A DNA stretch of 64,000 nucleotides from an uncultured Spirochaetaceae bacterium (GTDB lineage: Bacteria > Spirochaetota > Spirochaetia > SZUA-6 > DRHE01), in assembly GCA_964490725.1 (NCBI GenBank), contig CAZBDU010000013.1, forward strand, positions 8,633 to 72,632. Direction: 5' to 3'. Under the pieces are notes generated by a model. The model saw only the letters and a list, made by a program, of their open reading frames with translations, was not told the DNA's origin and made no database searches. Made by a program: the position numbers and the translations under genes. The first letter of the stretch is position 1. Every line of letters begins with the position of its first letter. Positions 13,072 through 30,639 of this stretch are shown piece after piece.

Positions 13072-14121
13072 TCAGCCGGCCGTCCTCGCGTGGTGAGGGG
13101 GTCCCGACTCCTGGGCGTAGCGGACCTCCGCAAGCCTCCTCCTGGCGGCGAAGCTCTTCACCACCTCATCGGCCCCGACACCCACTAGGATGACGAAACC
13201 GACCACGGCGAACTCCAGGGTCGTGGCGATGCCCAGGATGTTGATGGCGTTGTACAGCACCCGCACGATTGCGGTCCCGATGATCACCCCCAGGATGTTC
13301 CCTTCCCCTCCCTTCAGACTGACCCCGCCGACTACGCAGCCGGCGATGGCGTACAGCTCGTACATGTTCCCGGCCGTGGAGGGCTGGACCGTGTTCAGGT
13401 CCAGGGAGAAAAGGATGCCGGCGAACCCGGCGCAGGTGCTGGAGATGACGTAGGCGATGATGGTCATGCGGTCGGTGTTGATGCCGCTGAAGCGCGCGGC
13501 CTTCTCGTTGCGGCCCAGCGCCAGGATGTACCGCCCGTAGACCGAGCGATTCAGGAACACCGCCAGGATGATGCCGATGGCGATCAGAATGAGAAAGGGC
13601 ATCGGAAAGGACCAGTCAACCAGAAACCGGGGCGCCTGCCCCTGGGGCCAGAACGCCGAAGGGATCCTGCCGTGGGCCAGGAACTTCAACCCGGCGAAGC
13701 CGTTGCCATAGCCCTGGGTCACGTCCTGCATGGAAAAGCGGGCCATCCCGCGGTAGATGAACAGCCCGCAGAGGGTCACCACGAAGGGCTGCATCTTGAT
13801 CTTGGTGACCAGCAGCCCGTGGACGATCCCCATCAGGACCGACAGTCCCAGGCAGAGGAGAATGACGGGAACCACCGGCCACCCGCGCATGCGGATGAAG
13901 TGTGCGGACAGGGCGCCCACCAAACCCACGATGGAACCGACGGAGAGATCGATGCCGCCGGTCATAATCACGAAGGCCTCCCCCAGGCTGAGCAGCCCGA
14001 ACAGCCCGGACCAGCGCATGATGTTCATCAGGTTGTACCCCCCGATGAAGCTGGGATCGATGAGCGAGGTGATCATCATGACCACGGCCAGCAGCACCGC
14101 AATTCCGGCTATTCTCTTCAT
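13072..14121 (-). CDS. CUT2-family (ribose-type) sugar ABC transporter permease
   Basis: 349 aa. RbsC-like: GLFGLLSLGEAFVIMTGGIDLSVGSIVGL.., ALGRNEKAARFSGINTD. Confidence 0.9.
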   Translation of the reverse strand: MKRIAGIAVLLAVVMMITSLIDPSFIGGYNLMNIMRWSGLFGLLSLGEAFVIMTGGIDLSVGSIVGLVGALSAHFIRMRGWPVVPVILLCLGLSVLMGIVHGLLVTKIKMQPFVVTLCGLFIYRGMARFSMQDVTQGYGNGFAGLKFLAHGRIPSAFWPQGQAPRFLVDWSFPMPFLILIAIGIILAVFLNRSVYGRYILALGRNEKAARFSGINTDRMTIIAYVISSTCAGFAGILFSLDLNTVQPSTAGNMYELYAIAGCVVGGVSLKGGEGNILGVIIGTAIVRVLYNAINILGIATTLEFAVVGFVILVGVGADEVVKSFAARRRLAEVRYAQESGPPHHARTAG

Positions 14122-14145
14122 TCCTTCGTCCCTTCGTCCCCCGGT

Positions 14146-15654
14146 CTACTTCCCCCCGGTGGCCAGGTTGACCACCGCTTCCTCGCTGAACTGCTCCTTG
14201 TGCAGCTCTCCGCTGATCGCACCCTCGTGCATCACCAGGATCCGATCCGCAATGCCCAGCACCTCCTGCATCTCGCTGGAGATCACCAGGTTGGCGACCC
14301 CCTCCGCCGCCAGGCGCTCCATCAGACGGTAGATTTCCTCCTTGGCGACGACGTCGATGCCCCGGGTCGGCTCGTCCAGCAGGAGCACCCTGGGATTCAG
14401 GGAAAGCCACTTGCCCAGCACCACCTTTTGCTGGTTGCCGCCCGAGAGGGACTCCACCAGCTGGTCGATGCTGCGCAGGCGTACGTCCAGCCTCTGCACC
14501 ATCTGCCTGGCCAGGTCTCGCACCTCATCGAAGCGGATCATCTTGAGTGTCTGATGGCGGCCGAGACCGGCGAGGGTGATGTTCGGTTCCACGGCCATCT
14601 CCACGATCAGCCCGTGGAGCTTCCGGTCTTCCGGCACCAGGATGATCCCGTGGCTTATGGCGTCCTGCGGGCCGGTGATGCGGACCGGCTCGCCGTCCAG
14701 GAGAACCGTACCCGAAAGAGGGCTCTCGATGCCGAAGAGGGCGTGGGCCAGCTCGGTCCTGCCGGCTCCGACCAGTCCCGCCAGAACCAGGATCTCTCCC
14801 GCATGGACGGCGAAGCTGATCGGAACCCCGGGATGCCGCGCAAGGACCAGGTCGCGCACCTCGAGAACCGGACGGCCGACGAACTCATGCTCCTTGTGGT
14901 AGAACTTCTCGATGTCCCGGCCCACCATCAGCTTCACCATCTTCTCGTGGCTTATCTCCTGCAGGCTCAGGTGGCCGGAGACACAACCGTCGCGAAGCAC
15001 GACCACCCTGTCCGCCACCTCCTTCACCTCGCCCAGGCGGTGGGAGATGTAGATGATGCTCACTCCCTGAGACCGCAACTCCTCGATGACCTTGAACAGC
15101 CTCTCCGCCTCCGAGCGGGAAAGGCTGCTGGTCGGCTCGTCGAGAATCAGGATCTTCGAGTTGATGGACAGGGCCTTGGCGATCTCCACCAGCTGCTGGC
15201 TGCCGATGGCCAGGTGCCGGACAAGCACCTTCGGAGAGCAGTGCATGTCGATCCGGCTGAGGATTCTCTCCGTGTCCTCGTAGATCTTCCTGCGGTCCAC
15301 AAGACGCAGGAGCCCTCTCTCCCGCGGCTCCCGCCCGAGGAACACGTTGGCGCCCACGTCCAGGTTGTCCGAAAGGTTAAGCTCCTGATGGACGAAGGCG
15401 ATCCCCAGGCTGGTCGCCACCTGCACCGAAGGGATGCGTACCTCCTGGCCGTCCAGAACGATTGTGCCGGCGTCCGGCTCGTACACTCCCCCCAGGATCT
15501 TGGCGAGGGTGCTCTTGCCCGCGCCGTTTTCCCCGATGATCGCCAGGATCTCGCCCCGGTGCAGCCGGAGGCTGACATTGTCCAGTGCTTTGACTCCGGG
15601 GAAGAACTTGGTGACGCCGCGCATCTCCAGCAGGCAGGACCTGCCTCGCTCCAT
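14146..15654 (-). CDS. Sugar ABC transporter ATP-binding protein with two fused NBDs (RbsA-like)
   Basis: Two Walker A motifs (GENGAGKST, GLVGAGRTE), Walker B motifs (ILILDEPT, VLLLDEPT) and signature LSGGNQQK. Start placed at the internal ATG (MERGRS..LEMRGVTKFFPGVKAL); the track ORF extends to 15768. Confidence 0.92.
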   Translation of the reverse strand: MERGRSCLLEMRGVTKFFPGVKALDNVSLRLHRGEILAIIGENGAGKSTLAKILGGVYEPDAGTIVLDGQEVRIPSVQVATSLGIAFVHQELNLSDNLDVGANVFLGREPRERGLLRLVDRRKIYEDTERILSRIDMHCSPKVLVRHLAIGSQQLVEIAKALSINSKILILDEPTSSLSRSEAERLFKVIEELRSQGVSIIYISHRLGEVKEVADRVVVLRDGCVSGHLSLQEISHEKMVKLMVGRDIEKFYHKEHEFVGRPVLEVRDLVLARHPGVPISFAVHAGEILVLAGLVGAGRTELAHALFGIESPLSGTVLLDGEPVRITGPQDAISHGIILVPEDRKLHGLIVEMAVEPNITLAGLGRHQTLKMIRFDEVRDLARQMVQRLDVRLRSIDQLVESLSGGNQQKVVLGKWLSLNPRVLLLDEPTRGIDVVAKEEIYRLMERLAAEGVANLVISSEMQEVLGIADRILVMHEGAISGELHKEQFSEEAVVNLATGGK

Positions 15655-15806
15655 CTCCCGTCCCTGACCCGCTTCCGTTTTCGCCACGCCGACCTCCACA
15701 GGTTGACCTTGATGCTCCACCAGACGGGTCCTCCCGGGACGCGAGCCTGGGGAGGCCCCCGAGCTCACCCCAGGCTCGACATACCCACTGCTTCCGGGAG
15801 GAACAG

Positions 15807-16859
15807 CTATTTTACCTCGAAGAACTCACCCACGGCCAGCTGCTTGTTCAGGGTCTCCATGAAAGCGTCGACCTTGTCCTTGGTGATGTAGCGGGCAGGA
15901 ACATCCACAAGCTTGTCCGCGGGGATGCCCGCATCCTGGCCGCTGATGATCTTGTACAGCAGCTCGACGCTGGTGCGGCCGTACTCGTAGGGGTTCTGCA
16001 CGATGGTGCCCGCCACGTAGCCATCCTTGATGGCCTGGAGGACGACCACCTCCTCGTCGAAGCCGATGATCTTCATGGTGCCCAGCTTGCCGGCATCCTG
16101 CACGGCGCTGATGATGGCCGGGGTGTTGTAGCTCCACAGGCCGATCATCAGGTCGAGGTCGGGGTACTTCACCAGGATGTCCTCGGCGTTCCCTTTGGCG
16201 CGGCTCTCGTCGCCGCCGTCGGTGCGGGTGTCCAGGATGGTCCACTGCCCGCAGTCAACCCTGCCCTGGGGGGTCATCTCTCCGGGATACTGGGCGGCGT
16301 AGGGCTTGCCCTGCAGCTCATCGATGATCCCCTGGCGGCGCTCCACGGCGTTCTGCGCGTCCAACCTGCCCACGAAGATCACGAGCTTGCCTCCGGCGGG
16401 CAGCTGTTCCTTGATCTTCTGCCCGGCCAGCCGACCGGCGGCATAGTTGCTCATCCCCACGTAGGCCCGCCGGTTGCTCTTGGGCGCGTCGCTGTCGAAC
16501 ATGACCACCGGTATCTTGGAGCCGATTTCATTCAGGAAGGGAGTCATGTTGTCCGGGTCGATGACGCTGATGGCCAGCCCGTCGATTCCCTTGGCCATCT
16601 GCGTCTCGATGAACCGCTTCTGCTCTTCCAGAGTGGCGCTGGGAGGCTTGTAGAAGTTCACCCTGACGCCGAACTCCTGCTCCGCCTTGAGGCAGCCGGC
16701 ATGAGCATAGGTCCAAAACGTGTACGGTCCGTTGGACACGTAGGCGATGTTGATCTGCTTCTGGGCCGCTGTCTCGGGTGTGCCCCCGGCCCACAGGGTG
16801 CCCATCCCCGCGAGCACCAGGAGGAGAAGTGTCCAAGAGAGGAACTTCCTCAGGTTCAT
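15807..16859 (-). CDS. Sugar ABC transporter periplasmic substrate-binding protein (RbsB-like)
   Basis: MNLRKFLSWTLLLLVLAGMGTLWAGG signal peptide. Periplasmic-binding-protein type I fold features. AAGGAGG SD 7 nt upstream of the ATG at 16859. Confidence 0.9.
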   Translation of the reverse strand: MNLRKFLSWTLLLLVLAGMGTLWAGGTPETAAQKQINIAYVSNGPYTFWTYAHAGCLKAEQEFGVRVNFYKPPSATLEEQKRFIETQMAKGIDGLAISVIDPDNMTPFLNEIGSKIPVVMFDSDAPKSNRRAYVGMSNYAAGRLAGQKIKEQLPAGGKLVIFVGRLDAQNAVERRQGIIDELQGKPYAAQYPGEMTPQGRVDCGQWTILDTRTDGGDESRAKGNAEDILVKYPDLDLMIGLWSYNTPAIISAVQDAGKLGTMKIIGFDEEVVVLQAIKDGYVAGTIVQNPYEYGRTSVELLYKIISGQDAGIPADKLVDVPARYITKDKVDAFMETLNKQLAVGEFFEVK

Positions 16860-16928
16860 GAGAGAACCTCCTTTGAGTCGATTGCGGGAAGACCACGCCG
16901 TGGCCCCGTTCTCCCGCTGTCCTTGGAG

Positions 16929-16944
16929 AGCAAGAATCATGCCA
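16929..16944 (-). promoter_or_regulatory. Sigma54 (-24/-12) promoter of the binding-protein/ATPase/permease operon
   Basis: The minus strand reads TGGCATGATTCTTGCT, against the consensus TGGCAC-N5-TTGCW. It lies about 70 nt upstream of the ATG at 16859, and a sigma54 activator is encoded divergently. Confidence 0.65.
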
Positions 16945-17009
16945 CAAGACGGAGGCATGACCCTGCAATCCCTTGAAGCGCAAACAGTTAAACCATGGCC
17001 CTGGCTTCC

Positions 17010-17037
17010 TTGACAGGGGAGCCCGCCCCTGTATAAT
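17010..17037 (+). promoter_or_regulatory. Consensus sigma70 promoter (TTGACA-16 nt-TATAAT) for the response-regulator/kinase operon
   Basis: Read directly: TTGACA at 17010-17015 and TATAAT at 17032-17037. A second TATAAT lies at 17063-17068. Confidence 0.55.
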
Positions 17038-17077
17038 TGTTGTACATGCGATCACCCCCGTGTATAATCAGGATACA
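17030..17077. promoter_or_regulatory. Two TGT-N11-ACA dyads (TGTATAATTGTTGTACA, TGTATAATCAGGATACA), candidate enhancer (UAS) sites for the NtrC-type activator
   Basis: Dyads at 17030-17046 and 17061-17077, centres 31 bp apart, starting 86 nt upstream of the -24 element. The same motif and geometry recur at 29096-29143. Confidence 0.5.
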
Positions 17078-17080
17078 CAG

Positions 17081-18415
17081 GTGAAGCCACAAGTCCTGGT
17101 CGTCGACGACAAGATCAAGGTCTGCGAGAGCCTGGCCCAGAATTTCAGGCAGCTCGGGTACGAATGCCACGCGGCCACGAGCTCCGGCGAGGCGATCCAC
17201 ACTTTTCTGGACCACAAGATCAACACGGTGATCCTGGACATCAGGCTGGGCAATGACGACGGGATCGAGCTGCTGAAACAGCTGCAGAATCTCAACGGCA
17301 AGGTGCCGGTTATCATGATCACCGCTTACGGTACCATCGAGTCAGCGGTGGAATCCATCAAGCTCGGCGCCTTCGACTTTCTTCAGAAGCCAATCAACTT
17401 CGACAAGCTGGTGAAGGTGGTGGAGAATGCCATCAGGATGAATGTCCTGGAGGAGGAGAACCACAGGCTCAAGCGCAAGCTCTTCGATTTCTCCTCCAGG
17501 CTGGTCACGCAGAACAGGGAGATGATCGAGCTGTGCCGCAAGGCAAAGCAGCTGGCCGCCACAGAGCTGCCAATCTTGATCTGCGGGGAAAGCGGCACAG
17601 GGAAGGAGCTGCTGGCCGACTTCATCCATTCTCATTCCGCTCAGTCGTGCAACGAGATCATCAAGATCAATTGCTCCGCCTTCGCCGAATCCCTGCTGGA
17701 CAACGAGCTGTTCGGCCACGAGAAAGGGGCCTACACAGGGGCGGATTCTACCTTCCGGGGCGTGTTCGAGAGAGCGAACAACGGGACCCTCTTTCTGGAT
17801 GAGATCGGTGACATGCCCCTGCCCATCCAGAGCAAGATACTGCGCACTCTGCAGAACAAGGAGATTCGCAGGGTCGGCGGCAACAATACCATCAGGATCA
17901 GCGTTCGTTTCATAGCGGCCACAAACAAGAACCTCCAACAACTGATCGCAGAGGGAAGATTCCGGGACGACCTCTTTTACCGCCTGAACGCCGCCACCCT
18001 GACCATCCCTCCCCTGAGAGAGCGCAGGGAGGACATTCCGCTGCTAACCCGACACTTCCTGAACGACTTCCGGGCCCCGAGCTCGGACAGGCCGAAGACT
18101 CTCGCCAGAGAGGTTCTGGGGATTTTCCTGGATTGCGACTGGCCAGGGAACATCCGCGAGCTGAAGAACACTCTGCAGTACGCCGCCACCGTTTCGCTGA
18201 AGGACACCATTGACATCTGCGACCTGCCTCCCGGGTTCAACCACACCAGCAACGAAGGCGCGCCCCAGAATATCAGGGAGAAGATGGAGAGAGACCTGAT
18301 CGTGAGCATGCTCGCCAGGACCGGCTACAACAAGAAGCGGGCGGCGGAATTGCTCGGCATGAGCCGCAAGACGCTCTATAACAAGCTGGAAAGGTATGGC
18401 ATCCTCTGCCCGTGA
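17081..18415 (+). CDS. Sigma54-dependent response regulator (NtrC family: receiver + AAA+ + Fis-type HTH)
   Basis: VKPQVLVVDDK..DIRLG receiver domain. Walker A GESGTGKELLA. GAYTGA (GAFTGA-type sigma54 contact loop). C-terminal HTH KRAAELLGMSRKTLYNKL. GTG start chosen; the track ORF begins at 16973. Confidence 0.92.
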   Translation: MKPQVLVVDDKIKVCESLAQNFRQLGYECHAATSSGEAIHTFLDHKINTVILDIRLGNDDGIELLKQLQNLNGKVPVIMITAYGTIESAVESIKLGAFDFLQKPINFDKLVKVVENAIRMNVLEEENHRLKRKLFDFSSRLVTQNREMIELCRKAKQLAATELPILICGESGTGKELLADFIHSHSAQSCNEIIKINCSAFAESLLDNELFGHEKGAYTGADSTFRGVFERANNGTLFLDEIGDMPLPIQSKILRTLQNKEIRRVGGNNTIRISVRFIAATNKNLQQLIAEGRFRDDLFYRLNAATLTIPPLRERREDIPLLTRHFLNDFRAPSSDRPKTLAREVLGIFLDCDWPGNIRELKNTLQYAATVSLKDTIDICDLPPGFNHTSNEGAPQNIREKMERDLIVSMLARTGYNKKRAAELLGMSRKTLYNKLERYGILCP

Positions 18416-20252
18416 GGGCGGCAGCAACACCCTTCTCGAGCTCCAGAACGTCAATCTCTACTACGACACCCTCAAAGTCCTCAAGGATATCAACATCAGG
18501 ATCAACCGATCCGAGGTCCATGCCATCGTCGGGGAGCACGGGGCAGGCAAGACCTCCCTGTGCATGATCCTGAGCGGCTTCCTCAGGCCCTACTCGGGCA
18601 AGCTCATCCTGGAAGGGAAGACCTGCGATTCCCTGTCGCCCAGAAAGGCCCTCACCGCCGGCATCGAGCTCGTGACTCAGCACAATCCGGTGGTCGACAA
18701 CTTCAGCGTTGCGGAGAACCTTTATCTGGACAACCGCGGGGTCTCCAGCTATCCGTTCATCAACCGCAGAAAGTACCTGGAGATGGCGCAGGCCAGCCTC
18801 GAGGCGCACGGGTTCGCCATCCGTCCCGAGGCGGTGCTGCGAAACATGAAGCTCTCCGACCGGGTGCTGGTCGACATCCTGAAGCATCTGGTAAACCGGC
18901 CGCGGCTTCTGATCCTGGACGAGGCCCTCCAGAAGCTCACCGCGCCAAACTGCGCGAAGATGATCCAGCACCTGAAGGAGCTGAAAAAGGCGGGCATGTC
19001 GATCATCTTCGTCACCCACCGCATCGACGACATCTACAACTTCGCCGACAAGGTGTCCATTCTCAGAAACGGCGAGATCCTGATCACCGATTCCGTCAGC
19101 AACATCGACAAGATCAATCTCATCAAGCTCGCCTACACCCAGATCAGCAGCGACGAGGAGCTGGAGAACGCCAACCAGGAGTTCTACCACCTGCTCAAGT
19201 ACAACGAGGCCGTCCTCAAACAACTGCCTGTGAACCTGGTGGTTGTGGACCGCAACAACAGCATCAAGCTGATCAACGAGTACGCCAAGAAGTACTTCGA
19301 GATCGAGGAGACCAACTACCTGAACACGCCGGTCCGCGAGCTGTTTTCTTTCGAGAATCGGGCGGCCTTCGATTTGCTGCAGGGCGGCCTGTCCAGCAGG
19401 AACAGCGAGACCTTCTACGGCATCACCCTGAACAGGAACGGAGTGGAGTCGATCACCAACATCAAGACCCATCCGATCTACGACGAGTCTTTCCGCATCG
19501 GCTACTACATCATTGTCGAAGACATTACGGAGCGCGAAAAGCTGCGCGAGCAGGTGATCCTGTCGGAGAAGCTTGCCTCCGTCGGGCTGCTGTCAGCCGG
19601 TGTGGCCCATGAGATCAACAACCCGCTGGAGATTATCTACAACTATGTCCGCTACCTGAAGTTCCACACCGCGAGCCAGGAGATCCGTGCCACGGTGAAC
19701 AGCCTGGAGGAGGAGCTCAAGTCCATCTCGCAGATCGTCAGCAACCTGATCTCCTTCTCTGACAGCAGCAAGAACCTGGTCGAGCAGGTGGATGTCAACG
19801 AGCTGATCGCGAGTATCCTCAACCTGGTCGAGTACAATGCCAGGTACCGGCGCATCTTCATCCACTTCCATAGGAAAGCCGATCCGCTTCCCCTCCGGAT
19901 CAACAAGACCGAGATGAAGCAGGTCATCCTCAACCTGATCAAGAACAGCTTCGAGGCCATGCCCTCGGGCGGGCACCTGACGGTCGCCACGGGCAGGCGC
20001 AAGCAGGGCGAAACGCGGCTCGTGGAGATCGTCTTCCAGGACACCGGCTGCGGGATCGGAGACCGCAAGGTGAACGACATCTTCCTGCCTTTCTACTCCA
20101 CAAAGAAGGACGGGCACGGCAACCTGGGTCTGGGTCTCTCGGTGAGCTACGGGATCATCAGAAAATACCACGGTACGATCACCGTCCGCAATCGCGACGG
20201 CGCGGGTTGCGAGTTCACCATCCGGGTTCCCCAGGCTCAGCTCGGCCGCTGA
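18396..20252 (+). CDS. Soluble sensor histidine kinase with N-terminal ABC-transporter NBD (NBD-PAS-HisKA-HATPase_c)
   Basis: 618 aa. aa ~13-247 are RbsA-N-half-like: Walker A GEHGAGKTS, Q-loop VTQH, degenerate signature LSDRVLV, Walker B LLILDEA, H-loop VTHR. A PAS-like region spans aa ~262-375. H-box GVAHEINNPL has its His codon at 19608-19610. N/G boxes are LIKNSFEAM, DTGCGI and GLGLSVS. No transmembrane segment. Overlaps the response-regulator stop by 20 nt. Confidence 0.85.
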   Translation: MASSAREGGSNTLLELQNVNLYYDTLKVLKDINIRINRSEVHAIVGEHGAGKTSLCMILSGFLRPYSGKLILEGKTCDSLSPRKALTAGIELVTQHNPVVDNFSVAENLYLDNRGVSSYPFINRRKYLEMAQASLEAHGFAIRPEAVLRNMKLSDRVLVDILKHLVNRPRLLILDEALQKLTAPNCAKMIQHLKELKKAGMSIIFVTHRIDDIYNFADKVSILRNGEILITDSVSNIDKINLIKLAYTQISSDEELENANQEFYHLLKYNEAVLKQLPVNLVVVDRNNSIKLINEYAKKYFEIEETNYLNTPVRELFSFENRAAFDLLQGGLSSRNSETFYGITLNRNGVESITNIKTHPIYDESFRIGYYIIVEDITEREKLREQVILSEKLASVGLLSAGVAHEINNPLEIIYNYVRYLKFHTASQEIRATVNSLEEELKSISQIVSNLISFSDSSKNLVEQVDVNELIASILNLVEYNARYRRIFIHFHRKADPLPLRINKTEMKQVILNLIKNSFEAMPSGGHLTVATGRRKQGETRLVEIVFQDTGCGIGDRKVNDIFLPFYSTKKDGHGNLGLGLSVSYGIIRKYHGTITVRNRDGAGCEFTIRVPQAQLGR

Positions 20253-21334
20253 GGCCCCTGCGGGATCGCGGAGGCCCGAGAGGCAGGCGGCCTTTTCCCG
20301 CGGGTGCGGCCCGCTCCCGTTCCGTGCTCGCCGATCGCTTCCGCCAGCCGTCGCCTCGCGGCGGCGGACTTGATCAGCTCCTCGGCGCTGGCCCCGAACA
20401 GGATGACCGATCCGACAATGGTGTACTCCAGGGTCGTGGAGATGCCCAGGATGTTGATCGCGTTGTACAGCACCCGCACGATCGCCGTGCCGATAATCAC
20501 CCCGGGCACCGAGCCTTCTCCGCCCCGCAGGCTCGCGCCTCCCACCACGCAGCCGGCGATCGCGTACAGCTCATACATGTTTCCGGCCGTGGAGGGCTGC
20601 ACCGTGTTGAGGTCCAGCGAAAAGAGGACCCCTGCCAGGCACGCGCAGGTTGCAGAAATGACGTAGGCAGCGATCTTGATACGATCCGTGTCCACCCCGC
20701 TGAAACGCACGGCCCTCTCGTTGCTGCCGATGGCCAGGATGCAGCGTCCGTACACTGAGCGCTCCAGGAAAAGCCAGAGGATGGCGCCCGCGAACAGCAG
20801 GATGAGGAAGGGCATCGGCAGCGACCATTCGGCCACCAGCAGCGGGGCGTTGCCCGCCGGCCAGAAGGCGGAGGGAAGGCGGCCGTTGGCCAGGAACTTG
20901 AGCCCCTGGAAGCCGCTTCCGTACCCCTGGGTGACGTCTCGCAGCGCGAAGCGCGCCAGTCCGCGGTAGATGAACAGCCCGCACAGGGTCACCACAAAGG
21001 GCTGCACCTTGACCTTGGTGACCAGCACTCCGTGCAGCAGCCCCATCAGGACCGCCAGGGTAAGACAGATGAGCAGGGCCGCGGCGATGGGCAGCCCGCG
21101 TACGGTGATGAAGTTGGCCGAGAGCCCGCCGATGAGCCCCACGATGGAGCCGACCGACAGGTCTATGCCCCCGGTCATGATGACAAAGGACACCCCCAGA
21201 CTGAGCAGGCCGAACAGGCCCGTCCAGCGCAGGATGTTCTTGACGTTGTAGGGGTTGATGAAGTCCGGGTCGACGATGGTTGTGAGCAGCATGGCGGCCA
21301 CCAGGACAACGCCAATCCCCGCCGCTCTTCTCAA
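20237..21334 (-). CDS. Second CUT2-family sugar ABC permease, paralog of 13072-14121, with no adjacent ATPase or binding protein
   Basis: Collinear with the first permease (GLFGLLSLGVSFVIMTGGIDLSVGSIVGL.., AIGSNERAVRFSGVDTD). TTG start 7 nt after GGAGGG; the track ORF extends to 21409. Its 3' end overlaps the kinase 3' end by 16 nt (convergent). Confidence 0.9.
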   Translation of the reverse strand: MRRAAGIGVVLVAAMLLTTIVDPDFINPYNVKNILRWTGLFGLLSLGVSFVIMTGGIDLSVGSIVGLIGGLSANFITVRGLPIAAALLICLTLAVLMGLLHGVLVTKVKVQPFVVTLCGLFIYRGLARFALRDVTQGYGSGFQGLKFLANGRLPSAFWPAGNAPLLVAEWSLPMPFLILLFAGAILWLFLERSVYGRCILAIGSNERAVRFSGVDTDRIKIAAYVISATCACLAGVLFSLDLNTVQPSTAGNMYELYAIAGCVVGGASLRGGEGSVPGVIIGTAIVRVLYNAINILGISTTLEYTIVGSVILFGASAEELIKSAAARRRLAEAIGEHGTGAGRTRGKRPPASRASAIPQGPQRPS

Positions 21335-21419
21335 GCGATTACCCTCCTGCCTTCGCTGGCGCTTCGGCGGGCCGCTTTCGGGCCGGGGGCGGACCCGGCG
21401 GCGGGCCACCGCAGGGCCC

Positions 21420-22049
21420 TCAGGCGAGGCGTTTCTTCACTGCCTCCTTCAGGCGGCTGTCCCGGATCGACTCCGGGTCCACCAACGCCTTCACCCCCGG
21501 GTATTCCAGGGCCGGGCGGACCACCTCCTCGGGGAGGGTCTCGATAATCTCGGCCAGGCTGCGGTGGGTCAGCCGGGAGACCCGTTCCAGGATGAGGCGC
21601 GCCTCGCGCTGCGGCTCCCTGCGGTGCTCCGGATAACCGGCGCCTCGCTCCACACTGAAGAGCCGATCGAAGATGAAGCGCAGGTTCACATCCCCGGCCC
21701 AGCCGTAGCCGCGGTTGAGGGCCAGGGAAACACAGTTGCCGCCGTTGATCTGCATGAACAGCCAGGCGTCGAGGGGGTCCAGCACGAGCCCGCAGAACAC
21801 CCCCGGATACTGCATGATCGAGCTCAGGAAGCCCTGGCCCGTGCCGCAGCCACCGACGACGAAGTCCGCCCGCTTGAGCTCCAGCAGCACCGCTGCGATC
21901 AGGCCGGTGTGGACGTAGAGCAGCTCGGGCTTCGCTCCCCGCTCCCTCATACCGGCGTTGATGACCTGGTGGCCGCGTCCCTCGAGAGCGGCCAGGATGT
22001 CCGCGTTCTTGTCCGCGGCGCTGGTCTCGCTGACCACTGCTATCCTCAC
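21420..22049 (-). CDS. RpiB/LacA/LacB family sugar-phosphate isomerase (long ~210-aa form)
   Basis: VRIAVVSETSAADKNADIL..DFVVGGCGTGQGFLSSIMQYPGV.. GTG start after GGGAGGG. It forms the C-terminal part of track ORF 21420-23642. Confidence 0.8.
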   Translation of the reverse strand: MRIAVVSETSAADKNADILAALEGRGHQVINAGMRERGAKPELLYVHTGLIAAVLLELKRADFVVGGCGTGQGFLSSIMQYPGVFCGLVLDPLDAWLFMQINGGNCVSLALNRGYGWAGDVNLRFIFDRLFSVERGAGYPEHRREPQREARLILERVSRLTHRSLAEIIETLPEEVVRPALEYPGVKALVDPESIRDSRLKEAVKKRLA

Positions 22050-23624
22050 GGCACCCTCCCGGCCGGGGTCTGCGGCCGGCCTGTCCCGCGGGTCTCGACC
22101 CGGCCCGTCCCGTTCACCTCCCTGGCCCAGCCCAGGCAGCGCTGCACTGCCTTGTTCCATCCGCGGTAGAGGGCTTGCCGGCGCTCCTCGCTCATGGCGG
22201 GCTCGAAGCGGCGGTCCAGCCGCCAGTGGGCCGCCACTTCCTCCCTGCTGCCCCAGAAGCCGACACCGAGGCCCGCCAGGTAGGCGGCGCCACGGGCTGC
22301 CATCTCCGTCACCGAGGGCCGCTCCACCGGGATTCCCAGCACGTCCGCCTGGAATTGCATCAGGAAGTCGCTGCGGCTCGCACCTCCGTCCACTCTCAGG
22401 GAGTCCGCCTGCCTGCCCGAATCGGCGCTCATCGCGTCCAGCACGTCCCGGGTCTGGTAGGCCATGGATTCCAGGCTCGCCCGGGCAATGTGCTCCCGGC
22501 CTGTCCCGCGGGTGATGCCGACGATAAGGCCCCGGGCGTACATGTCCCAGTAGGGGGCGCAGAGGCCGGTGAAGGCGGGCACCACATACACCCCTCCGGT
22601 GTCCTCCGCCTGAGCGGCCAGCCGGGTGCAGCCCTCCGCGTCCTCGACGATCCTCAGGCCGTCCCGCAGCCACTGCACCGCCGCCCCTCCGATGAACACC
22701 ACCCCTTCCAGAGCATACTCGGTCTTTCCATTGACGTGCCAGCCGAGATCCGTGGTCAGGCCGTGTGCGGACAGCATGGGGGTCTGGCCAATGTTCATCA
22801 TCAGCGCCAGGGCAGTGCCGTAGGTGTTCTTCGCCATCCCCGGCCTGAAGCAGTTCTGCCCGAAGGTGGCGGCGTGCTGGTCCCCGGCCGCGCCGGCTAC
22901 CGGGATCTCCGCTCCGAAGAAGACCATCCGGTCGGTGGTGGCCAGCACGCCGCTGGAGGAAAGGGGGGTGGGCAGGATCTCCTCGGGTATCTCCAGAGCC
23001 GCCAGGAGCTCCGCGTCCCACTGCAGCGTGTGGATGTTCAGCAGCATCGTCCGCGAGGCGTTGGAGAAGTCGGTCACGTGCGCCCTCTGGCCGCTCAGGT
23101 TCCAGATGAGCCAGGAATCGATGGTCCCCATGCAGATCTTGCCCCGGGCGATCCTCTCTCTCACTTCCGGCACGTTGTCCAGGATCCACCGGATCTTGGT
23201 TGCCGAGAAGTAGGCGTCGATCAGAAGGCCGGTCCTCTCCCGCACCAGCGGCTCCAGCCCCTTGGCCTTGAGCTCGTCGCACAGCGCCGCGGTGCGACGG
23301 CACTGCCAGACGATGGCGTTGTACACCGGCCGGCCGCTGTCCCTGTCCCAGAGGATCGTGGTTTCCCGCTGATTGGTGATGCCGATCCCGGCGATCGCCT
23401 CGGCCTCCAGGCGGCCCTTCTCCAGCACCTCCCGGGTGCAGTCCATCACCGTTTCCCAGTACTCCCGGGGGTCCTGCTCCACCCAGCCCGGCTGCGGGTA
23501 GATCTGCCGGATCTCCCGGTAGGCCGAGGAGTGGATGTCCCCGTTGTGCCGGAAGAGGATCACCCGGGTCCCGGTGGTTCCCTGGTCGATGGCCATGATG
23601 AATCGCTTGTCCACGGCGTCCCCC
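22046..23624 (-). CDS. glpK: Glycerol kinase (FGGY family)
   Basis: FIMAIDQGTTGTRVILF, GWVEQDPREYW, GITNQRETTILWD, GAAGDQHAATFGQ, RVDGGASRSDFLMQFQADVLG. GTG start at 23624. About 25 aa of low-complexity C-terminal tail. Confidence 0.9.
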
Positions 23625-23634
23625 TCGTCTCCAG

Positions 23635-24615
23635 TTAGCCACGCTCCAGGAGCGTCTCCCGCAGCAGGTCGTAGAGACCGGTGATGTCTTCTCGCTCCTG
23701 GTAGCGGCGGATGGCCTCGCCGTCCAGTCTGTCGGCGAGCCTCTCCATGCTTTGCAGCATACGGATCGAAAGCCCCACGGCCTCGGCCGGATCCTCGCGG
23801 AAAGGGAACTGATCCATGATGATGTAGCCCTCGTAGCTGGACTGCTTCAGGTACCAGAGGTACTCCACGGTGCGCCAGAGGTTGACGGTGCCGGCGATCA
23901 GGTCGTCGTCGAACTCCCCGTAGGCGTCGTTGCCATGCACGTTGAAGAGCCGGCCCGCCCGGTCGAGCATGCACAGCGACTCGGCGGGGTTCTCCCGAGA
24001 CAGGAGGGCGTGGCCGAAATCGAGGGTGATGCCGAAGTTCTCCGCGCCCACGTCGTGAGCCAGAACGAGGGCTTTCCCGACGTTGGCTACCATCATGAAC
24101 ATGCGGGGCTCTTTCAGCTTGTACTCGTAGGAGAAGCGCAAGTCGGGAGCGTACGCGGCGATCTCCCTGATGGCCTCCACGGTGGAGCTCCACATCGCGT
24201 TGTAGTCCCCCTGGAAGCAGTAGTCGTGTCCGTCCTGGCCCGGCCACATGTCGATGAGCCGGAAGCCCATCTCCCGGGCCGCATCGGCTCCCTTCTTCAC
24301 GGTGTCCACCGCCTTCCGGTAGGTCTTTCTGTCCCTGCTGGTGAAGGCGCCGTACTTGTACCGCGGGGCGAACAGGGCCATGTTCATGGCCTGCATCTCA
24401 AGCCCGCTGTCGCGGATGATCGCGGCCACCTCCCTGACCTGCAGCCCCTCGAAGTCACTCGGGTAGTGGATCTGGATCGCCTCCAGCCCCTTGACACGGG
24501 CTGCCGTTCGCACCTGCTCGCGGAAGCTCTGCGCAGGCCGATAGCCCCCCGGGATGAACCGGTCGGCCGTAAACCCGATGGTCCACAGTCCCGCTCCGAA
24601 CCTGAGCCTTTTCAT
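23635..24615 (-). CDS. Sugar phosphate isomerase/epimerase, xylose-isomerase-like TIM barrel
   Basis: 326 aa. AP_endonuc_2-type pattern (..IQIHYP.., WPGQDGHDY, EYKLKEPR, ITLDFGHALL, NVHGNDAYGEFDDDL). GAAGGAGG SD. Confidence 0.8.
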   Translation of the reverse strand: MKRLRFGAGLWTIGFTADRFIPGGYRPAQSFREQVRTAARVKGLEAIQIHYPSDFEGLQVREVAAIIRDSGLEMQAMNMALFAPRYKYGAFTSRDRKTYRKAVDTVKKGADAAREMGFRLIDMWPGQDGHDYCFQGDYNAMWSSTVEAIREIAAYAPDLRFSYEYKLKEPRMFMMVANVGKALVLAHDVGAENFGITLDFGHALLSRENPAESLCMLDRAGRLFNVHGNDAYGEFDDDLIAGTVNLWRTVEYLWYLKQSSYEGYIIMDQFPFREDPAEAVGLSIRMLQSMERLADRLDGEAIRRYQEREDITGLYDLLRETLLERG

Positions 24616-24688
24616 GTTGCGCCCTCCTTCTTCTCCACCTTCTGCACGCGGAACCGGCCGCAGGGCTCCCCGCGGCGGCCCCCAGGGG

Positions 24689-24939
24689 CTACTCCGGCAG
24701 CGGCTCCCCTGGAAAGAACATCACCTTGTTGAACGCCTGCTCCCTGCGGTGCATCAGAACTGGTGGCCGATGGTCGTCGGGTGGCGGTAGGTGCCCGTGA
24801 GCATGACCCGGGGAATGTCCGAGCCGCAGACGCCGCAGGCCTTGACCCGCACGATGAGCTCGCCTTCCCTCTCGATCTGCGGGGCCTCCGTGTGCACACA
24901 CCGCAGGTCCCCGGGCGCAAAGAGCCCGACCGCCCTCAT
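24689..24939 (-). pseudogene. Deletion remnant of a zinc-dependent (MDR) polyol/alcohol dehydrogenase
   Basis: MRAVGLFAPGDLRCVHTEAPQIEREGELIVRVKACGVCGSDIPRVMLTGTYRHPTTIGHQF then TGA. About 20 nt later, in another frame, ..REQAFNKVMFFPGEPLPE-stop resembles an MDR C-terminus. Roughly 270 internal codons are missing. Confidence 0.65.
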
Positions 24940-24995
24940 TGTTTCTGGCTCCACGAATCTGGCTCTCCCCCGTCTGCCCGGCGGCAACCGGCTGC

Positions 24996-25274
24996 TCAGC
25001 CGCCGGCCACCATCTGCAGGAGCATCACCTCCTGATCTTCCCGCAACGCGGTGCGGAGCTCCTTCACCGGACGGCCGTCCACGATGATGATCACCGAGGC
25101 CGCTGGCTTCCTACCCTGCCGATCCCAGAACTGCCCGGGGACGGCGGCCGCCCAGCGCTCGTCGATCAGTTTCATCAGGCTCTGAAGCGTGGAGCCTTCC
25201 GGCAGCTCCATCCGGTGGGTCTGCTCGCCGAGAAAGCCCGCCAGCGCCCCGAGGGCGCGCAGCCTGATCTTCAT
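24996..25274 (-). CDS. MoaD/ThiS-family ubiquitin-like small protein (C-terminal GG)
   Basis: 92 aa, ending ..VMLLQMVAGG. Lies immediately downstream of the AOR gene. Confidence 0.75.
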   Translation of the reverse strand: MKIRLRALGALAGFLGEQTHRMELPEGSTLQSLMKLIDERWAAAVPGQFWDRQGRKPAASVIIIVDGRPVKELRTALREDQEVMLLQMVAGG

Positions 25275-25283
25275 GGGCGGCCC

Positions 25284-27143
25284 TCACTGCGCGTAAAGAT
25301 CGGCGGCGGCATCCTCGAGGCCCAGCTCCAGCAGGACCGCCCGGCTCGGCCTGCCGTCCGCCTCCCAGCGGCGCAGCCGGTAGTACCGTTCCAGCTGGGC
25401 CGCCAGGTCCGGCACCTTGCCCGCCGCACCCCCTTCCTTCAGGGGGGTCATGGCCCGCACCGGCATGGTGTCATCCTCCCTCCGTATCCCGCAGCGCCAG
25501 TTGTACGCTCGATGCAGAGCGTTGATCCGGTCTCCGATGCACAGCAGGTCCTCTGGCCTCAGCGCGGAGCCGGTGGCCGCCTTCAGCAGGGCGCAGAAAT
25601 CCGAGGGCTTCAGCAGCACGGTGGCGAAATAGCACAGCACGAGAGAGTCCAGGACGTGGGCCCAGTTTTGGGCGAAGCGAGTCATCTCCGCCTTTCCGGT
25701 GTCGCTCAACCGCGTGTATGTGCCCGTGAACCCCCACTCCGGGATCGGGTTCTCCCCCTCTTCGTAGAGGTCCGTCATACCATGCAGATGGCAGCCTCCC
25801 CGGGAAGCGGTGGCGTAGTTGGAGGCCCACGCGAACCCGGCCCGCGCGTCGTGCATGGGAAGCTCCAGGCCCTTGACCTGCACCGCCCACTCCTTCGAGC
25901 CTCCCCCCAGCTTCTGCGCCAGCCTCCTGGTGCCCAGTCCCAGGAGCCTTCCCGCCCCTTCGCCTCGGCCGATCTTTTCGATCATACGGATCAACGCCTC
26001 CGCGCTGCCCCAGCGCAGCTCGATCCCATCCAGATCCTGGCTGGCGAGCAACCCCTTCTCGACGCATTCCATGGCAAAGGCCAGGGTGGAGCCGGTGCTG
26101 ATCGCATCCAGGCCGTAGAGGTTGCAGAGATGGTTGGCGTAGCAGACCGCCCGCACGTCCAGCACCATGCAGAGGGTTCCCAGCGCCGCCGTGCTCTCAT
26201 ACTCCGGGCCGGGAGCGTCCATCCTGTAGGGACCCTCCTCGATGCGGGTCCAGCGAGCGCAGCCGATGGTACAGCGGTGGCAGGCGGAGTGTCTCCTGGG
26301 CATGAGCTCGTAGATTCTCCGCCCTCCAATGGCCGTGCACACCGCTTCGGTGGAGCCCACCGACCAGTTCTTCACCGGGATGTCGCTGATCGCCCAGCGG
26401 CTGTCCAGCACGTCCGCCGTGCCGTACTTCCTGAGCGCCTCCAGGTCAGGGTCCGTGGCGTTGCGCCGGTTGATCGCCCGGGCCAGCTCCGTGAAGCCCT
26501 CCGGGTCGGCCAGCTGCACCTCCGCCGAGCCCCGCACCGCGATGGCCTTCAGCCGCTTGGCGCCCATGACCGCCCCGCCGCCGCCCCGGGCCGCCGCCCG
26601 GGCGTCGTCGTTGAGGATGGCACTGTACAGCACCCCCTTCTCCCCGGCCGGGCCGATCACCGCCACCCTGACCCCGCGCTGGCCTATCTCTTGCCTGATA
26701 TCCTCCTGGGCCGCGAAGGTGTCCTTACCCCAGTGTTGTGAGGCAGCGCGAATCTCCGCCTTCCCCTCCTCGACGTACAGATACACCGGCTCCGACGCGG
26801 CCCCTTCCACGACCAGCCCGTCGTAACCTGCCCTGCGGAGCGCCGTTCCCCAGTGTCCGCCAGAGCTGGAGTCGCAGAGCATCTCGGTCAGGGGGGCCTT
26901 GAAAACCACCTGGTAGCGCCCAGAGGTGCCCAGGGAGGTGCCCGTGACCGGTCCGGTCATGAACAGGAGCCTGTTCTCCGGCCCCAGCGGATCGGCCTCC
27001 GGAGGGATCTCGTCATAGGCCAGCCGGATTCCCATCCCGGAGCCCCCAATGTAGTTCCTGGCGTGCTCCGGTGAGACAGGCTCCTCGGCGATCCTCCCGG
27101 AGCCGAGATTCACCCGCAGCAGCTTTCCCATGTAGCCCTTCAT
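25284..27143 (-). CDS. Tungsten-type aldehyde:ferredoxin oxidoreductase (AOR family)
   Basis: 619 aa. MGKLLRVNLGSG..YIGGSGMGIRL..FMTGPVTGT N-terminus. 4Fe-4S Cys motif CHRCTIGC. AAGGAGG SD. Confidence 0.92.
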   Translation of the reverse strand: MKGYMGKLLRVNLGSGRIAEEPVSPEHARNYIGGSGMGIRLAYDEIPPEADPLGPENRLLFMTGPVTGTSLGTSGRYQVVFKAPLTEMLCDSSSGGHWGTALRRAGYDGLVVEGAASEPVYLYVEEGKAEIRAASQHWGKDTFAAQEDIRQEIGQRGVRVAVIGPAGEKGVLYSAILNDDARAAARGGGGAVMGAKRLKAIAVRGSAEVQLADPEGFTELARAINRRNATDPDLEALRKYGTADVLDSRWAISDIPVKNWSVGSTEAVCTAIGGRRIYELMPRRHSACHRCTIGCARWTRIEEGPYRMDAPGPEYESTAALGTLCMVLDVRAVCYANHLCNLYGLDAISTGSTLAFAMECVEKGLLASQDLDGIELRWGSAEALIRMIEKIGRGEGAGRLLGLGTRRLAQKLGGGSKEWAVQVKGLELPMHDARAGFAWASNYATASRGGCHLHGMTDLYEEGENPIPEWGFTGTYTRLSDTGKAEMTRFAQNWAHVLDSLVLCYFATVLLKPSDFCALLKAATGSALRPEDLLCIGDRINALHRAYNWRCGIRREDDTMPVRAMTPLKEGGAAGKVPDLAAQLERYYRLRRWEADGRPSRAVLLELGLEDAAADLYAQ

Positions 27144-28141
27144 CTCACCCCTCCTTTGCGCTTCTTGTCTCTCGCGAGAACGGTCCGGCGGCCTTCATCT
27201 GCCCCTCTCCTGTGCACTTCTTTTTTCTCAAGGGCCTCCCGGGCGGCCCGGGCGATATCTTGCGGACCCAGGCCGCAGAAGTCCCACAGGCTCTCCGGAT
27301 CAGGGCCGGTACAGACGAAGGTATCCCGGATACCTACCGGAACCGCCGGCGTGGGCCTCTCCCGGCTCAGCGCCTCGGCTACGGCGCCGTAGAGCCCCCC
27401 GACGATCGAGTGCTCCTCCACTGTGACCAACGCTCCCGTCTCTGCGGCAGCGCGGAGGACCAGCTCTCTGTCCAGGGGCTTGAGGGTGTGGATCTCCAGC
27501 ACTCGGGCGGAGATCCCCTCCCGCTCGAGCAGCTCGGCAGCCTCCAGGCTGCGGTGCACGGCAATTCCGGTAGCCACCAGGGTGAGGTCTCTGCCCTCCC
27601 TGAGCGGGCGCCCTTTGCCGATCTCCACGGCGCTATTCCGGCCAGGAACCGTCGGAACATCCGCCCGGCTGATGCGCAGGTACACCGGGCCGGGGTACTC
27701 CGCAACGGCTGGAATCAACTCCTTCAGCTCCGCGCCGTCGGTGGCGGTGACCACCGTCATGTTGGGCATGGCCCTCATGACGGCCAGATCGAACACCGAG
27801 TGATGGGTGGGACCGTCTTTGAAATCGGACACCCCCGCATAACCGGCCAGCAGCTTGACGTTGGCGCGGTTGTAGGCCACGCAGGTACGGATTTGCTCCA
27901 ACCCCCGGTAGCAAAGCATCGCAGCGAAGGCGCTGACGAAAGGGATCTTGCCGGCCAGGGCCATCCCCACCGCCGTGTCGATCATCCCGGGCTCGGCGAT
28001 CCCGACATTGAAGAACCGCTCCGGGTGCGCCTCGCGGAACAGGATGGTCATGGTGGAGTTGGAGGCATCCGCATCCAGAACCACTACGTTGCCGTTCAGG
28101 TGTCCGTAGTCCGCCAGGGCCCGGCCTAGCTCCTTCCTCAT
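27140..28141 (-). CDS. Transketolase, C-terminal (pyrimidine-binding) subunit
   Basis: MRKELGRALADYG..FFNVGIAEPGMIDTAVGMALAGKIPFVSAFA..GPTHHS.. ATGA overlap with the N-terminal subunit gene. Confidence 0.9.
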   Translation of the reverse strand: MRKELGRALADYGHLNGNVVVLDADASNSTMTILFREAHPERFFNVGIAEPGMIDTAVGMALAGKIPFVSAFAAMLCYRGLEQIRTCVAYNRANVKLLAGYAGVSDFKDGPTHHSVFDLAVMRAMPNMTVVTATDGAELKELIPAVAEYPGPVYLRISRADVPTVPGRNSAVEIGKGRPLREGRDLTLVATGIAVHRSLEAAELLEREGISARVLEIHTLKPLDRELVLRAAAETGALVTVEEHSIVGGLYGAVAEALSRERPTPAVPVGIRDTFVCTGPDPESLWDFCGLGPQDIARAAREALEKKEVHRRGADEGRRTVLARDKKRKGGVR

Positions 28142-28980
28142 GACCTGCCCGCTCCCGAGAGCTCCCGTCTGGCTTGCTCCATCTGCTCTCCCGTCGGCGC
28201 CGCCCCGTGCCAGGCATGGGCGTTCTCCATGAAGCTCACCCCCTTTCCCTTCACCGTGTGGGCTACGATCATCGCTGGCCGGTCGTGGATTGTCTCCGCT
28301 TCGTCGAGAGCCTCCAGGATATGGCGCATGTTGTGACCATCGATCTCGATGACCCCCAAGTTGAAGGCCTTCCACTTGTCCACGAGGGGCTCCAGAGGCA
28401 TGATCTCGTGCACGAAGCCGTCCAGCTGTACGTCGTTGTAGTCCAGGATCAGGGTCAGGTTGCTGAGATGGTACTTGGCCGCGGTCATCGCCCCCTCCCA
28501 GATGACCCCCGCCTGGCACTCCCCGTCTCCCAGCAGCACATAGGTGCGGAAGCGCCGGCCGTCGAGCCTGGCCGCCAGAGCCAGCCCGGCGCCCACGTTG
28601 ATGCCGTGTCCCAGGACTCCGGTGGTCATGTCCACGCCCGGGGTCTTGAGGCGCTCCGGATGTCCCTGCAGGTGGCAGTCCAGCTTTCCCCAGTTTCCCA
28701 AGTCGCTCTCCGGAAAGAACCCCCTCGCGGCAAGAGCCGCATAGAGAATGGCGCTGGCGTGTCCCTTGCTCAGGATGAAACGGTCCCGGCCGGGATCCTC
28801 CGGCAGGGCAGGATCGACGCGCAGCTTGTGGAAGTACAGGGCCGTGACGATGTCCGCTGCCGACAGGGAGCCGCCGGGATGACCGGCTCCTCGCCGCCAG
28901 ATCATCTCCAGCGCGGTGATGCGCAACCGCCGGGCCGTGTCCTCCAGACAGGCGATGAGCCTTTCTCCGTGGTGTGGCAT
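28138..28980 (-). CDS. Transketolase, N-terminal (TPP-binding) subunit
   Basis: 280 aa. GAGHPGGSLSAADIVTALYF..RDRFILSKGHA..LGDGECQAGVIWE. Confidence 0.9.
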   Translation of the reverse strand: MPHHGERLIACLEDTARRLRITALEMIWRRGAGHPGGSLSAADIVTALYFHKLRVDPALPEDPGRDRFILSKGHASAILYAALAARGFFPESDLGNWGKLDCHLQGHPERLKTPGVDMTTGVLGHGINVGAGLALAARLDGRRFRTYVLLGDGECQAGVIWEGAMTAAKYHLSNLTLILDYNDVQLDGFVHEIMPLEPLVDKWKAFNLGVIEIDGHNMRHILEALDEAETIHDRPAMIVAHTVKGKGVSFMENAHAWHGAAPTGEQMEQARRELSGAGRS

Positions 28981-28994
28981 GACTGGCCTCAGAC

Positions 28995-29010
28995 AGCAAG
29001 AAATGTGCCA
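28995..29010 (-). promoter_or_regulatory. Sigma54 (-24/-12) promoter of the transketolase-AOR-glpK-permease operon
   Basis: The minus strand reads TGGCACATTTCTTGCT, a perfect TGGCAC-N5-TTGC, and is 13/16 identical to the element at 16929-16944. The -12 GC is only ~16 nt from the ATG at 28980. Confidence 0.6.
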
Positions 29011-29095
29011 AATCCTGGCGCTCCCGTGCTGTAAACCCTTATGCTAAAGGGAGTTGTCAGCCGAAAATGGAAGACGGTTACCGCCGCCGGGTGAA

Positions 29096-29143
29096 TGTAT
29101 AACTCTTATACAAACCAGCCTGGCTGTGTACAATACCGCTACA
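29096..29143. promoter_or_regulatory. Two TGT-N11-ACA dyads (TGTATAACTCTTATACA, TGTACAATACCGCTACA), candidate UAS sites
   Basis: Dyads at 29096-29112 (perfect 7-3-7 palindrome) and 29127-29143, centres 31 bp apart, starting 86 nt upstream of the -24 T. This is the same geometry as at 17030-17077. Confidence 0.5.
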
Positions 29144-29636
29144 GTCAGGTGCGCGGAAGACGCACTTTGTTGAATCGAGGCGGGATTGGACGTGCCCCTG
29201 CGGAGACGGTCCCGACGGATGAGCAGATCGACGGCCAGGGCGCCTACGACACGGGTCATGCTTTGCTACCGGCTCGTATTCCCCATCGGCCCCTTCAGCC
29301 ATAACCTCAAGCTTGGCTTCTCCTCATGTTGCTAAAGCAGGCAACGCCTGCAGGAACGCCTGGTTCCGATCGCTCTGTTTCAGGCCGGGCCGGGCTCGAG
29401 CTGGAAACGGCAGCACCGCCCGGTCCAGAGAGTCTCCTCCACCCGAAAGCCTCTGGCCGGCGAAAGAGCTCCGGCCAGCGCCCGGAAAGGATTGATGCAG
29501 TACAGCTCGCAGGGCCGACCTTGGGTCTTGCGGAGGATTCCACGGTCTTGGAGGCGAGGCTTCCAGAGCACCAGGTGCCGGCCCCTTCGACTGTTCACCG
29601 ATCTGTGTCGACCGCACCTGCGGAAAGTCGCCATTG

Positions 29637-29665
29637 TTGACTGGATTGAAAACTTGACCTAATAT
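29637..29665 (+). promoter_or_regulatory. Sigma70 promoter TTGACT-17 nt-TAATAT for the toxin-antitoxin operon
   Basis: Read directly. The -10 ends 6 nt before the GTG start at 29672, which implies a leaderless or very short-leader mRNA. Confidence 0.5.
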
Positions 29666-29682
29666 GGTCTTGTGAAGACCAT
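29664..29682. promoter_or_regulatory. Perfect palindrome ATGGTCTT-GTG-AAGACCAT spanning the -10 region and start codon; candidate antitoxin operator
   Basis: 8-3-8 inverted repeat read directly. The central GTG is the antitoxin start codon. Confidence 0.45.
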
Positions 29683-30330: not shown

Positions 30331-30639
30331 CGGGAGGCTACTCTCCCCGGCCCCGCTCTCGGACGTCCTGGGGCCGGAAAAAGGAGCGGGGGACACGCCG
30401 AATCCTGCCTGCGGCGAACCCCCCCGGTGCCTGCGATGTCGCAGGGCTTGTCGGAATCTAGCGACTCGACGTTCTGGCCGACAAGACCACCAAGGCACAG
30501 ACACAGTGGTCGATTTCCGCCGGAGCAAAGCAACGATAGCCCTCCCTCTCCTATTCGAATCGATCATGATGATCTCGCGGTTGTATCTGCGACCGGCGCA
30601 ACCCTCGAGACCCTGGAGGCGCCGCCTGCCGCCGGCGCG

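Follow-up and report, generated by a model that had tools for sequence, protein, structure and literature searches.

Tandem enhancer-like dyads linking two predicted sigma-54 promoters to an NtrC-class regulator gene in an uncultured Spirochaetaceae bacterium

In a 64,000-nucleotide stretch of contig CAZBDU010000013.1 from an uncultured Spirochaetaceae bacterium (hereafter the window), 221 bp separate the gene for the binding protein of a sugar-type ATP-binding cassette (ABC) transporter from the divergent gene for an NtrC-class response regulator. Our analysis makes it quite likely that this region carries tandem enhancer sites for the adjacent regulator, which would activate two sigma-54 operons, and that these sites overlap the regulator's own sigma-70 promoter. 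The region would then be a control region of bacterial-enhancer design that acts in both directions. A preliminary description, made from the sequence alone, had listed a −24/−12 element, the Shine–Dalgarno sequence and ATG of the binding-protein gene, two dyads with their 86-nt and 31-bp distances, and a TTGACA-16-TATAAT pair facing the regulator gene; each of these elements is in place.

Dyad 1 begins 86 nt from the T of the −24 element (17030 − 16944), and both the starts and the centres of the two dyads are 31 bp apart, positions that fit those looked for in tandem sites on one helix face (about 80–150 bp upstream of the −24 element). The promoter itself, TGGCATGATTCTTGCT, departs at one position from TGGCACG-N4-TTGCW in a direct reading of 16700–17300. 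Motif scanning of the source genome covered the 64-kb window. The bare pattern TGT-N11-ACA, by which the preliminary description had defined the sites, occurred 9 times against 4.4 expected, a count reached by 3 of 100 shuffles, and this enrichment is weak alone. The dyads themselves proved real, but that definition of the half-site was too short: the full site appears to be TGTATAA-N3-TTATACA, a 7-3-7 arrangement of 17 bp. With up to two mismatches, the extended form TGTATAAT-N6-ACA was found 8 times against 1.09 expected, and none of 100 shuffles reached 8. The extended motif is above chance in the window, and its four matches with at most one mismatch are confined to two places. The window has just two good sigma-54 matches (at most one mismatch), and one of these places lies 86 nt upstream of each. 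Single elements are unconvincing; their combination is strongly supported. Scanning with a position weight matrix, built from the sites that it scores, returned nothing else scoring at least 11 in the window beyond these two control regions, and no score of 18 or more and no dyad pair turned up in a control set of about 1.4 Mb, comprising about 160 loci whose NtrC-type regulators are unrelated.

The second of these places, at 28995–29143, had been missed in the preliminary description. Here too the two dyads are spaced by 31 bp and the pair starts 86 nt from the −24 T; both promoters, TGGCATGATTCTTGCT and TGGCACATTTCTTGCT, contain the GG and GC doublets one helical turn apart and carry one mismatch each to TGGCAC-N5-TTGCW. 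Ungapped comparison of the two 149-bp control regions revealed 78% identity at motif positions and 32% over the rest. The latter value rules out a recent duplication, and the contrast between the two points to independent instances of one design. Outside the motifs, the sole stretch common to both regions is TG.AA.CCCTT, found at an equal offset and resembling the core of an integration host factor (IHF) site.

Orthologous loci were obtained by a protein homolog search followed by retrieval of the encoding contigs, with about 20 kb of flank per ortholog; scans of contig collections with the regulator were swamped by AAA+ paralogs (best identities 51% and 43%), and only one locus from them, L001, was informative. 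The named relatives are Spirochaetaceae or Spirochaetia bins (67% identity) and candidate division KSB3 (58%). Synteny is constant: the genes for binding protein, ATPase and permease flank the intergenic region at one end, and those for the regulator and an ABC-domain kinase at the other. All 10 distinct orthologous loci examined keep the −24/−12 element ahead of the gene for the binding protein or transporter, a finding that supports the proposed promoter of the transporter operon, whose dependence on sigma-54 (rpoN) we infer. Alignment of seven intergenic regions (regulator identity 67–76%, locus GC 52–65%) revealed conservation restricted to discrete islands. On the transporter side these are the ribosome-binding site with the ATG, GCAA (−12), TGCCA (−24) and YAA-N4-TT, and on the regulator side TTGAC (−35), TGTATAAT..TT..AC (dyad 1), TGTATAA...G..TAC (dyad 2) and the start codon.

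Spacing was conserved together with sequence. All close orthologs keep the 31-bp spacing of the paired dyads exactly, and dyad 1 lies 85–89 nt from the −24 T in 8 of 9 cases (5 of 6 close orthologs) and 98 nt from it in locus L161. Locus L163 carries a second pair, at 14809 and 14840 (spanning 14809–14856), 87 nt upstream of the sigma-54 promoter TGGCATATATTTTGCA; it precedes the catabolic operon and directly follows the stop codon of the previous gene. This recurrence at second promoters, in the window and in L163, together with the spacing and the absence of the pair from the unrelated loci, supports the earlier proposal that the dyads may be enhancer sites of the adjacent NtrC-type regulator.

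The four orthologs at 58–61% identity keep the full layout, with dyads drifted to CGTRTAAT..TTAYACG or TGTGTAAAT..ACG; dyad 1 still contains a −10-like hexamer, and dyad 2 a G-rich ribosome-binding site. In L001, at 51% identity, the sigma-54 promoter is present and the dyad motif absent, and the recognition helix reads SRNTLYRKL versus SRKTLYNKL. Drift of the dyads alongside regulator divergence further favors binding by this regulator. It also bears on an alternative in which the dyads serve as operators of another factor whose gene lies outside the module, such as a global or sugar-specific repressor, with the sigma-54 activator binding elsewhere or acting from solution. Room for such a factor is left by the length of the flanks, by the indirect nature of the case for regulator binding, and by a conserved palindrome in the predicted leader of the binding-protein mRNA, which shows that further factors or structures may act here. 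We nevertheless consider this alternative improbable, since the sites accompany the regulator gene on both Spirochaetota-like and KSB3-like contigs, the module has no further conserved regulator gene, this regulator being its only conserved DNA-binding protein, and the position at about −120 and −151, the tandem same-face layout and the 7-3-7 geometry are typical of NtrC-type enhancers.

On the opposite strand, the promoter facing the regulator gene matches the sigma-70 consensus at 12 of 12 positions, with its −10 inside dyad 1. Every regulator-proximal site, including those of the diverged loci L172 and L173, keeps the −35 sequence TTGAC 16 nt ahead of the TATAAT in dyad 1, and in seven orthologs TTGA is invariant and the −35/−10 spacing constant. 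The claimed overlap between dyad and regulator promoter thus holds. No −35 hexamer was found at either of the two second sites examined (window 29096–29143 and L163), which have no divergent gene. This distribution suggests that TGTATAAT is primarily a protein-binding half-site, joined with a −35 into a promoter only at the regulator-proximal sites.

Several observations weigh against the proposed enhancer arrangement. The sigma-54 pattern, with at most one mismatch, gives 2 matches in the window against 0.64 expected, a number reached by 12 of 100 shuffles; by itself this count is not above chance. Within the 64 kb of the window, no gene for an RpoN-box protein was found. Positive matrix scores are circular, because the matrix derives from the same sites, which leaves the negative control and the spacing as the only evidence independent of its construction. 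The predicted start of the second promoter lies downstream of an apparent ribosome-binding site, GAGG, a position that looks awkward for a normal leader and would imply a near-leaderless transcript or an unusual start; a later start codon for the transketolase gene was considered and rejected, given that the N-terminal helix aligns with orthologs and that the ATG at 28980 has a well-spaced GAGG. Lastly, TGTATAAT is a near-perfect −10, so promoter function could explain part of the conservation next to the regulator gene, and a second sigma-70-like pair (TGTACA, 16 nt, TATAAT, 10 of 12 positions) is found at 17041–17068.

From these last features a rival account can be built, in which the two TGTATAAT boxes are mere −10 elements of tandem sigma-70 promoters P1 and P2 (12/12 and 10/12), the symmetry is incidental, and the sigma-54 promoter is non-functional or activated elsewhere. 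TATAAT is indeed the best-conserved part of each dyad. We regard this account as very improbable. Paired dyads also occur where neither a divergent gene nor a −35 is found, at the second sites of the window and of L163; the right half-sites (TTATACA or TACA) are conserved, as is the exact 31-bp spacing; and it is the −24 element, rather than the regulator gene, from which the dyads keep a fixed distance of about 86 nt. A transcript from the second TATAAT would moreover begin some 5 nt ahead of the start codon and lack the ribosome-binding site.

If the dyads are regulator-binding sites, their placement has consequences for the regulator gene itself. Dyad 1 overlies both the −10 and the predicted start, and dyad 2 spans approximately +18 to +34 of the predicted transcript, including in its spacer the ribosome-binding site AGGA (17070–17073), a point that the preliminary description had not noted. 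With dyads over the −10, the start site and the ribosome-binding region, occupancy should lower transcription of the regulator-kinase operon, and negative autoregulation is probable, although its sign is deduced from position. The overlap might instead be neutral or stimulatory, with autoregulation absent or positive, as some enhancer-binding regulators are positively autoregulated from sigma-54 promoters. We hold this to be unlikely, given the coverage just described and the persistence of the overlap in every ortholog despite changes in the dyad (−10 TATACT or TGTAAT in L172 and L173). A precedent is also available: the sigma-70 promoter glnAp1 of Escherichia coli, 115 bp upstream of the sigma-54 promoter glnAp2, is blocked by phosphorylated NtrC, which activates glnAp2 (PMC1865078).

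The regulator looks functional, with phospho-acceptor Asp53 and Walker motifs intact and a sigma-54-contacting loop reading GAYTGA, kept in 9 of 10 aligned relatives. By architecture it would belong to the NtrC class, apparently as no ortholog of a named regulator, for its NCBIfam scores remain below all cut-offs (AtoC 425 of 714 bits, NtrC 392 of 558.6, ZraR 363 of 760, NifA 315 of 528.85). In the proposed mechanism, the partner kinase would phosphorylate the regulator, which would then occupy the two same-face 17-bp dyads at about −120 and −151 and oligomerize. Looping of the DNA across the IHF-like block would bring it to the promoter at 16944–16929, which it would open at the expense of ATP, switching the ABC transporter operon on. 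At 28995–29143 it would likewise open the second promoter and switch on the catabolic operon, while at its own gene dyad occupancy would block the sigma-70 promoter and hold the regulator-kinase operon down. The coordinates of all features are collected in Table 1.

Table 1. Features of the two control regions and of the associated genes (window coordinates; start sites are predicted).
Feature	Position	Strand	Description
Sigma-54 (−24/−12) promoter, transporter operon	16929..16944	-	TGGCATGATTCTTGCT, read 16944 to 16929; predicted +1 near 16918
YAA-N4-TT block	16966..16978	.	CAATCCCTTGAAG; between promoter and candidate enhancer; A, A and T columns invariant in orthologs
Sigma-70-type promoter, regulator gene	17010..17037	+	TTGACA (17010-15), 16 nt, TATAAT (17032-37)
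Dyad 1 (candidate enhancer site)	17030..17046	.	TGTATAATTGTTGTACA; centre about −120 from the predicted sigma-54 start; covers −10 and predicted start of regulator promoter
Dyad 2 (candidate enhancer site)	17061..17077	.	TGTATAATCAGGATACA; centre about −151; ends 3 nt ahead of GTG start codon (17081)
Palindrome/hairpin, predicted 5' leader of binding-protein mRNA	16888..16921	-	Conserved; also L161 9775-9810, L163 7085-7112 and others
Ribosome-binding site and start codon, binding-protein gene	16857..16874	-	AAGGAGG (16874-16868) and ATG (16859); block invariant in orthologs
Putative target operon 1, sugar-type ABC transporter	13072..16859	-	Pfam; synteny in orthologs
Binding protein (Peripla_BP_4)	15807-16859	-	Operon 1
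Double-domain ABC ATPase	14146-15768	-	Operon 1
Permease	13072-14121	-	Operon 1
Response regulator	17081..18415	+	Pfam Response_reg, Sigma54_activat and HTH_8 (Fis-type helix-turn-helix); GTG start
Partner histidine kinase	18396..20252	+	N-terminal ABC ATPase domain, PAS, HisKA, HATPase_c
Putative target operon 2 (catabolic)	20237..28980	-	Converges on kinase gene end
Second sigma-54 promoter	28995..29010	-	TGGCACATTTCTTGCT; predicted +1 about 4 nt before ATG at 28980
Second pair of candidate enhancer dyads	29096..29143	.	TGTATAACTCTTATACA (29096-29112) and TGTACAATACCGCTACA (29127-29143); no −35 hexamer

Between promoter and candidate enhancer, the YAA-N4-TT block recurs in every ortholog and at 29032–29044 in the second control region, always 22–34 nt upstream of the −24 T. 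Compared with WATCAA-N4-TTR, only its core fits, as TCAA-N4-TTG on the promoter strand in the window. The leader palindrome comprises nine consensus pairs, three of which show compensatory changes among six orthologs, and in AT-rich relatives it reads ATCACC..GGTGAT; it may represent either an RNA stem or a DNA operator. A search of Rfam with 16500–17400 returned nothing meaningful (best E = 0.054, a microRNA model), and on this basis the palindrome is not a known RNA family. On the regulator side, an inverted repeat, ACAGGGG-N6-CCCCTGT (17013–17032, plus strand), fills the sigma-70 spacer and enters dyad 1. The corresponding terminator-like hairpin was set aside, being found only in this GC-rich genome and not kept in orthologs. 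In L170, about 270 bp (approximately 9700–10000) are inserted between dyad 2 and the regulator start relative to the close relative L171, and the occurrence of AAGGT(A/C)ACGGAT at both ends of the insert suggests a small insertion element.

The catabolic operon encodes N and C subunits of a transketolase, an aldehyde:ferredoxin oxidoreductase, a small open reading frame (ORF), a xylose-isomerase-like TIM barrel, an FGGY kinase, an RpiB-like isomerase and a second permease. The FGGY kinase (22046–23605, minus strand) passes the NCBIfam equivalog cut-off of the glycerol kinase GlpK, with 695 bits versus 590. The last gene, for the second ABC permease (20237–21409, minus strand), keeps its placement in most close orthologs; the KSB3-like loci L170 and L171 are without it at the kinase gene. 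In L163, where an AraA-like gene is the first downstream of the second sigma-54 promoter, a tiny ORF (MREVEK; 14587–14615, minus strand) with its own ribosome-binding site overlaps the start of that gene. Upstream of the second enhancer in the window, the approximately 1.3 kb at 29144–30500 hold only short ORFs with no Pfam match. Further on, an ECF-type (extracytoplasmic function) sigma factor with DUF6596 and TPR repeats (32203–33534, minus strand) is unrelated to the control regions.

The control region is a new instance of a well-known design, with a textbook logic that makes it unsurprising to a specialist. In the E. coli glnALG operon, NtrC sites 1 and 2 lie at roughly −110 and −140 and consist of the 7-3-7 dyad TGCACCA-N3-TGGTGCA, and NtrC represses its own synthesis at glnLp. 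Like glnALG, the region described here has two strong 17-bp 7-3-7 dyads about three helical turns apart upstream of a sigma-54 promoter. It differs in its half-site (TGTATAA versus TGCACCA), in its targets, which are a sugar-type ABC transporter and a catabolic operon rather than nitrogen assimilation, and in the sigma-70 promoter, which faces the opposite way and drives the regulator-kinase operon instead of the same structural gene. Rhizobial dctA/dctBD, in which a sigma-54 transporter gene diverges from the two-component genes that control it and tandem DctD sites occupy the shared intergenic region, has the same divergent arrangement with tandem sites between. Its target, however, is a C4-dicarboxylate permease and not an ABC importer, its DNA motif differs, and the sensor DctB sits in the membrane and has a periplasmic domain, in contrast to the kinase here, which appears soluble and bears an ABC ATPase domain. 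The NifA site, TGT-N10-ACA, found more than 100 bp upstream of a −24/−12 promoter, shares the TGT...ACA end bases and the location; the spacing here is N11 (a 17-bp site) and the half-sites are longer, and NifA is a GAF-domain protein, in contrast to a phosphorylated response regulator. Among the best-scoring named families, AtoS/AtoC and ZraS/ZraR, the domain order of the regulator is the same, and AtoS and ZraS are closest to the PAS-HisKA-HATPase_c core of the kinase, with a ZraS structure among the top matches in the PDB. Both are nonetheless membrane kinases without an ABC domain, and the scores obtained here are far below the equivalog cut-offs. Finally, the overlap of activator sites with a sigma-70 promoter is shared with E. 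coli, where that promoter is blocked by the phosphorylated activator (PMC1865078).

More unusual than the control region is the partner kinase, the part most likely to hold novelty. Predicted to be soluble, it has no membrane segment (maximum 19-residue hydropathy 1.26), and its single ABC domain most resembles the first half of the ATPase of the cognate sugar transporter, at 31% identity. This domain retains the Walker A, Q-loop, Walker B and H-loop motifs, and its signature motif is degenerate. The same architecture is common to 117 of the top 120 homologs. At NCBIfam equivalog cut-offs the kinase reached no named family (238 versus 646 bits for AtoS), no PDB chain spans both the ABC part and the kinase core, and our literature search returned nothing relevant on the dyad motif, histidine kinases fused to an ABC domain, or sigma-54-linked sugar systems of spirochaetes or KSB3. 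These features raise the tentative idea, more doubtful than not in our view, that the control region is the output of an undescribed type of sensor, an ABC-domain kinase that reads its importer as a receptor. The kinase could dock on a permease, perhaps the second permease of operon 2, and read transport activity or binding-protein docking directly. If true, the loop would be closed, with the sensing hardware (binding protein and permeases) induced while regulator and kinase are repressed.

For an uncharacterised two-component system that is widespread in uncultured anaerobes (Spirochaetota-like, KSB3/Moduliflexus-like and others), the analysis defines a regulon and a DNA motif precisely enough to be tested, and it ties this system to a defined module of sugar or polyol uptake and catabolism. 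The motif, its spacing and the two promoters provide a handle for studying the ABC-domain-fused kinase and for annotating the module in metagenomes.

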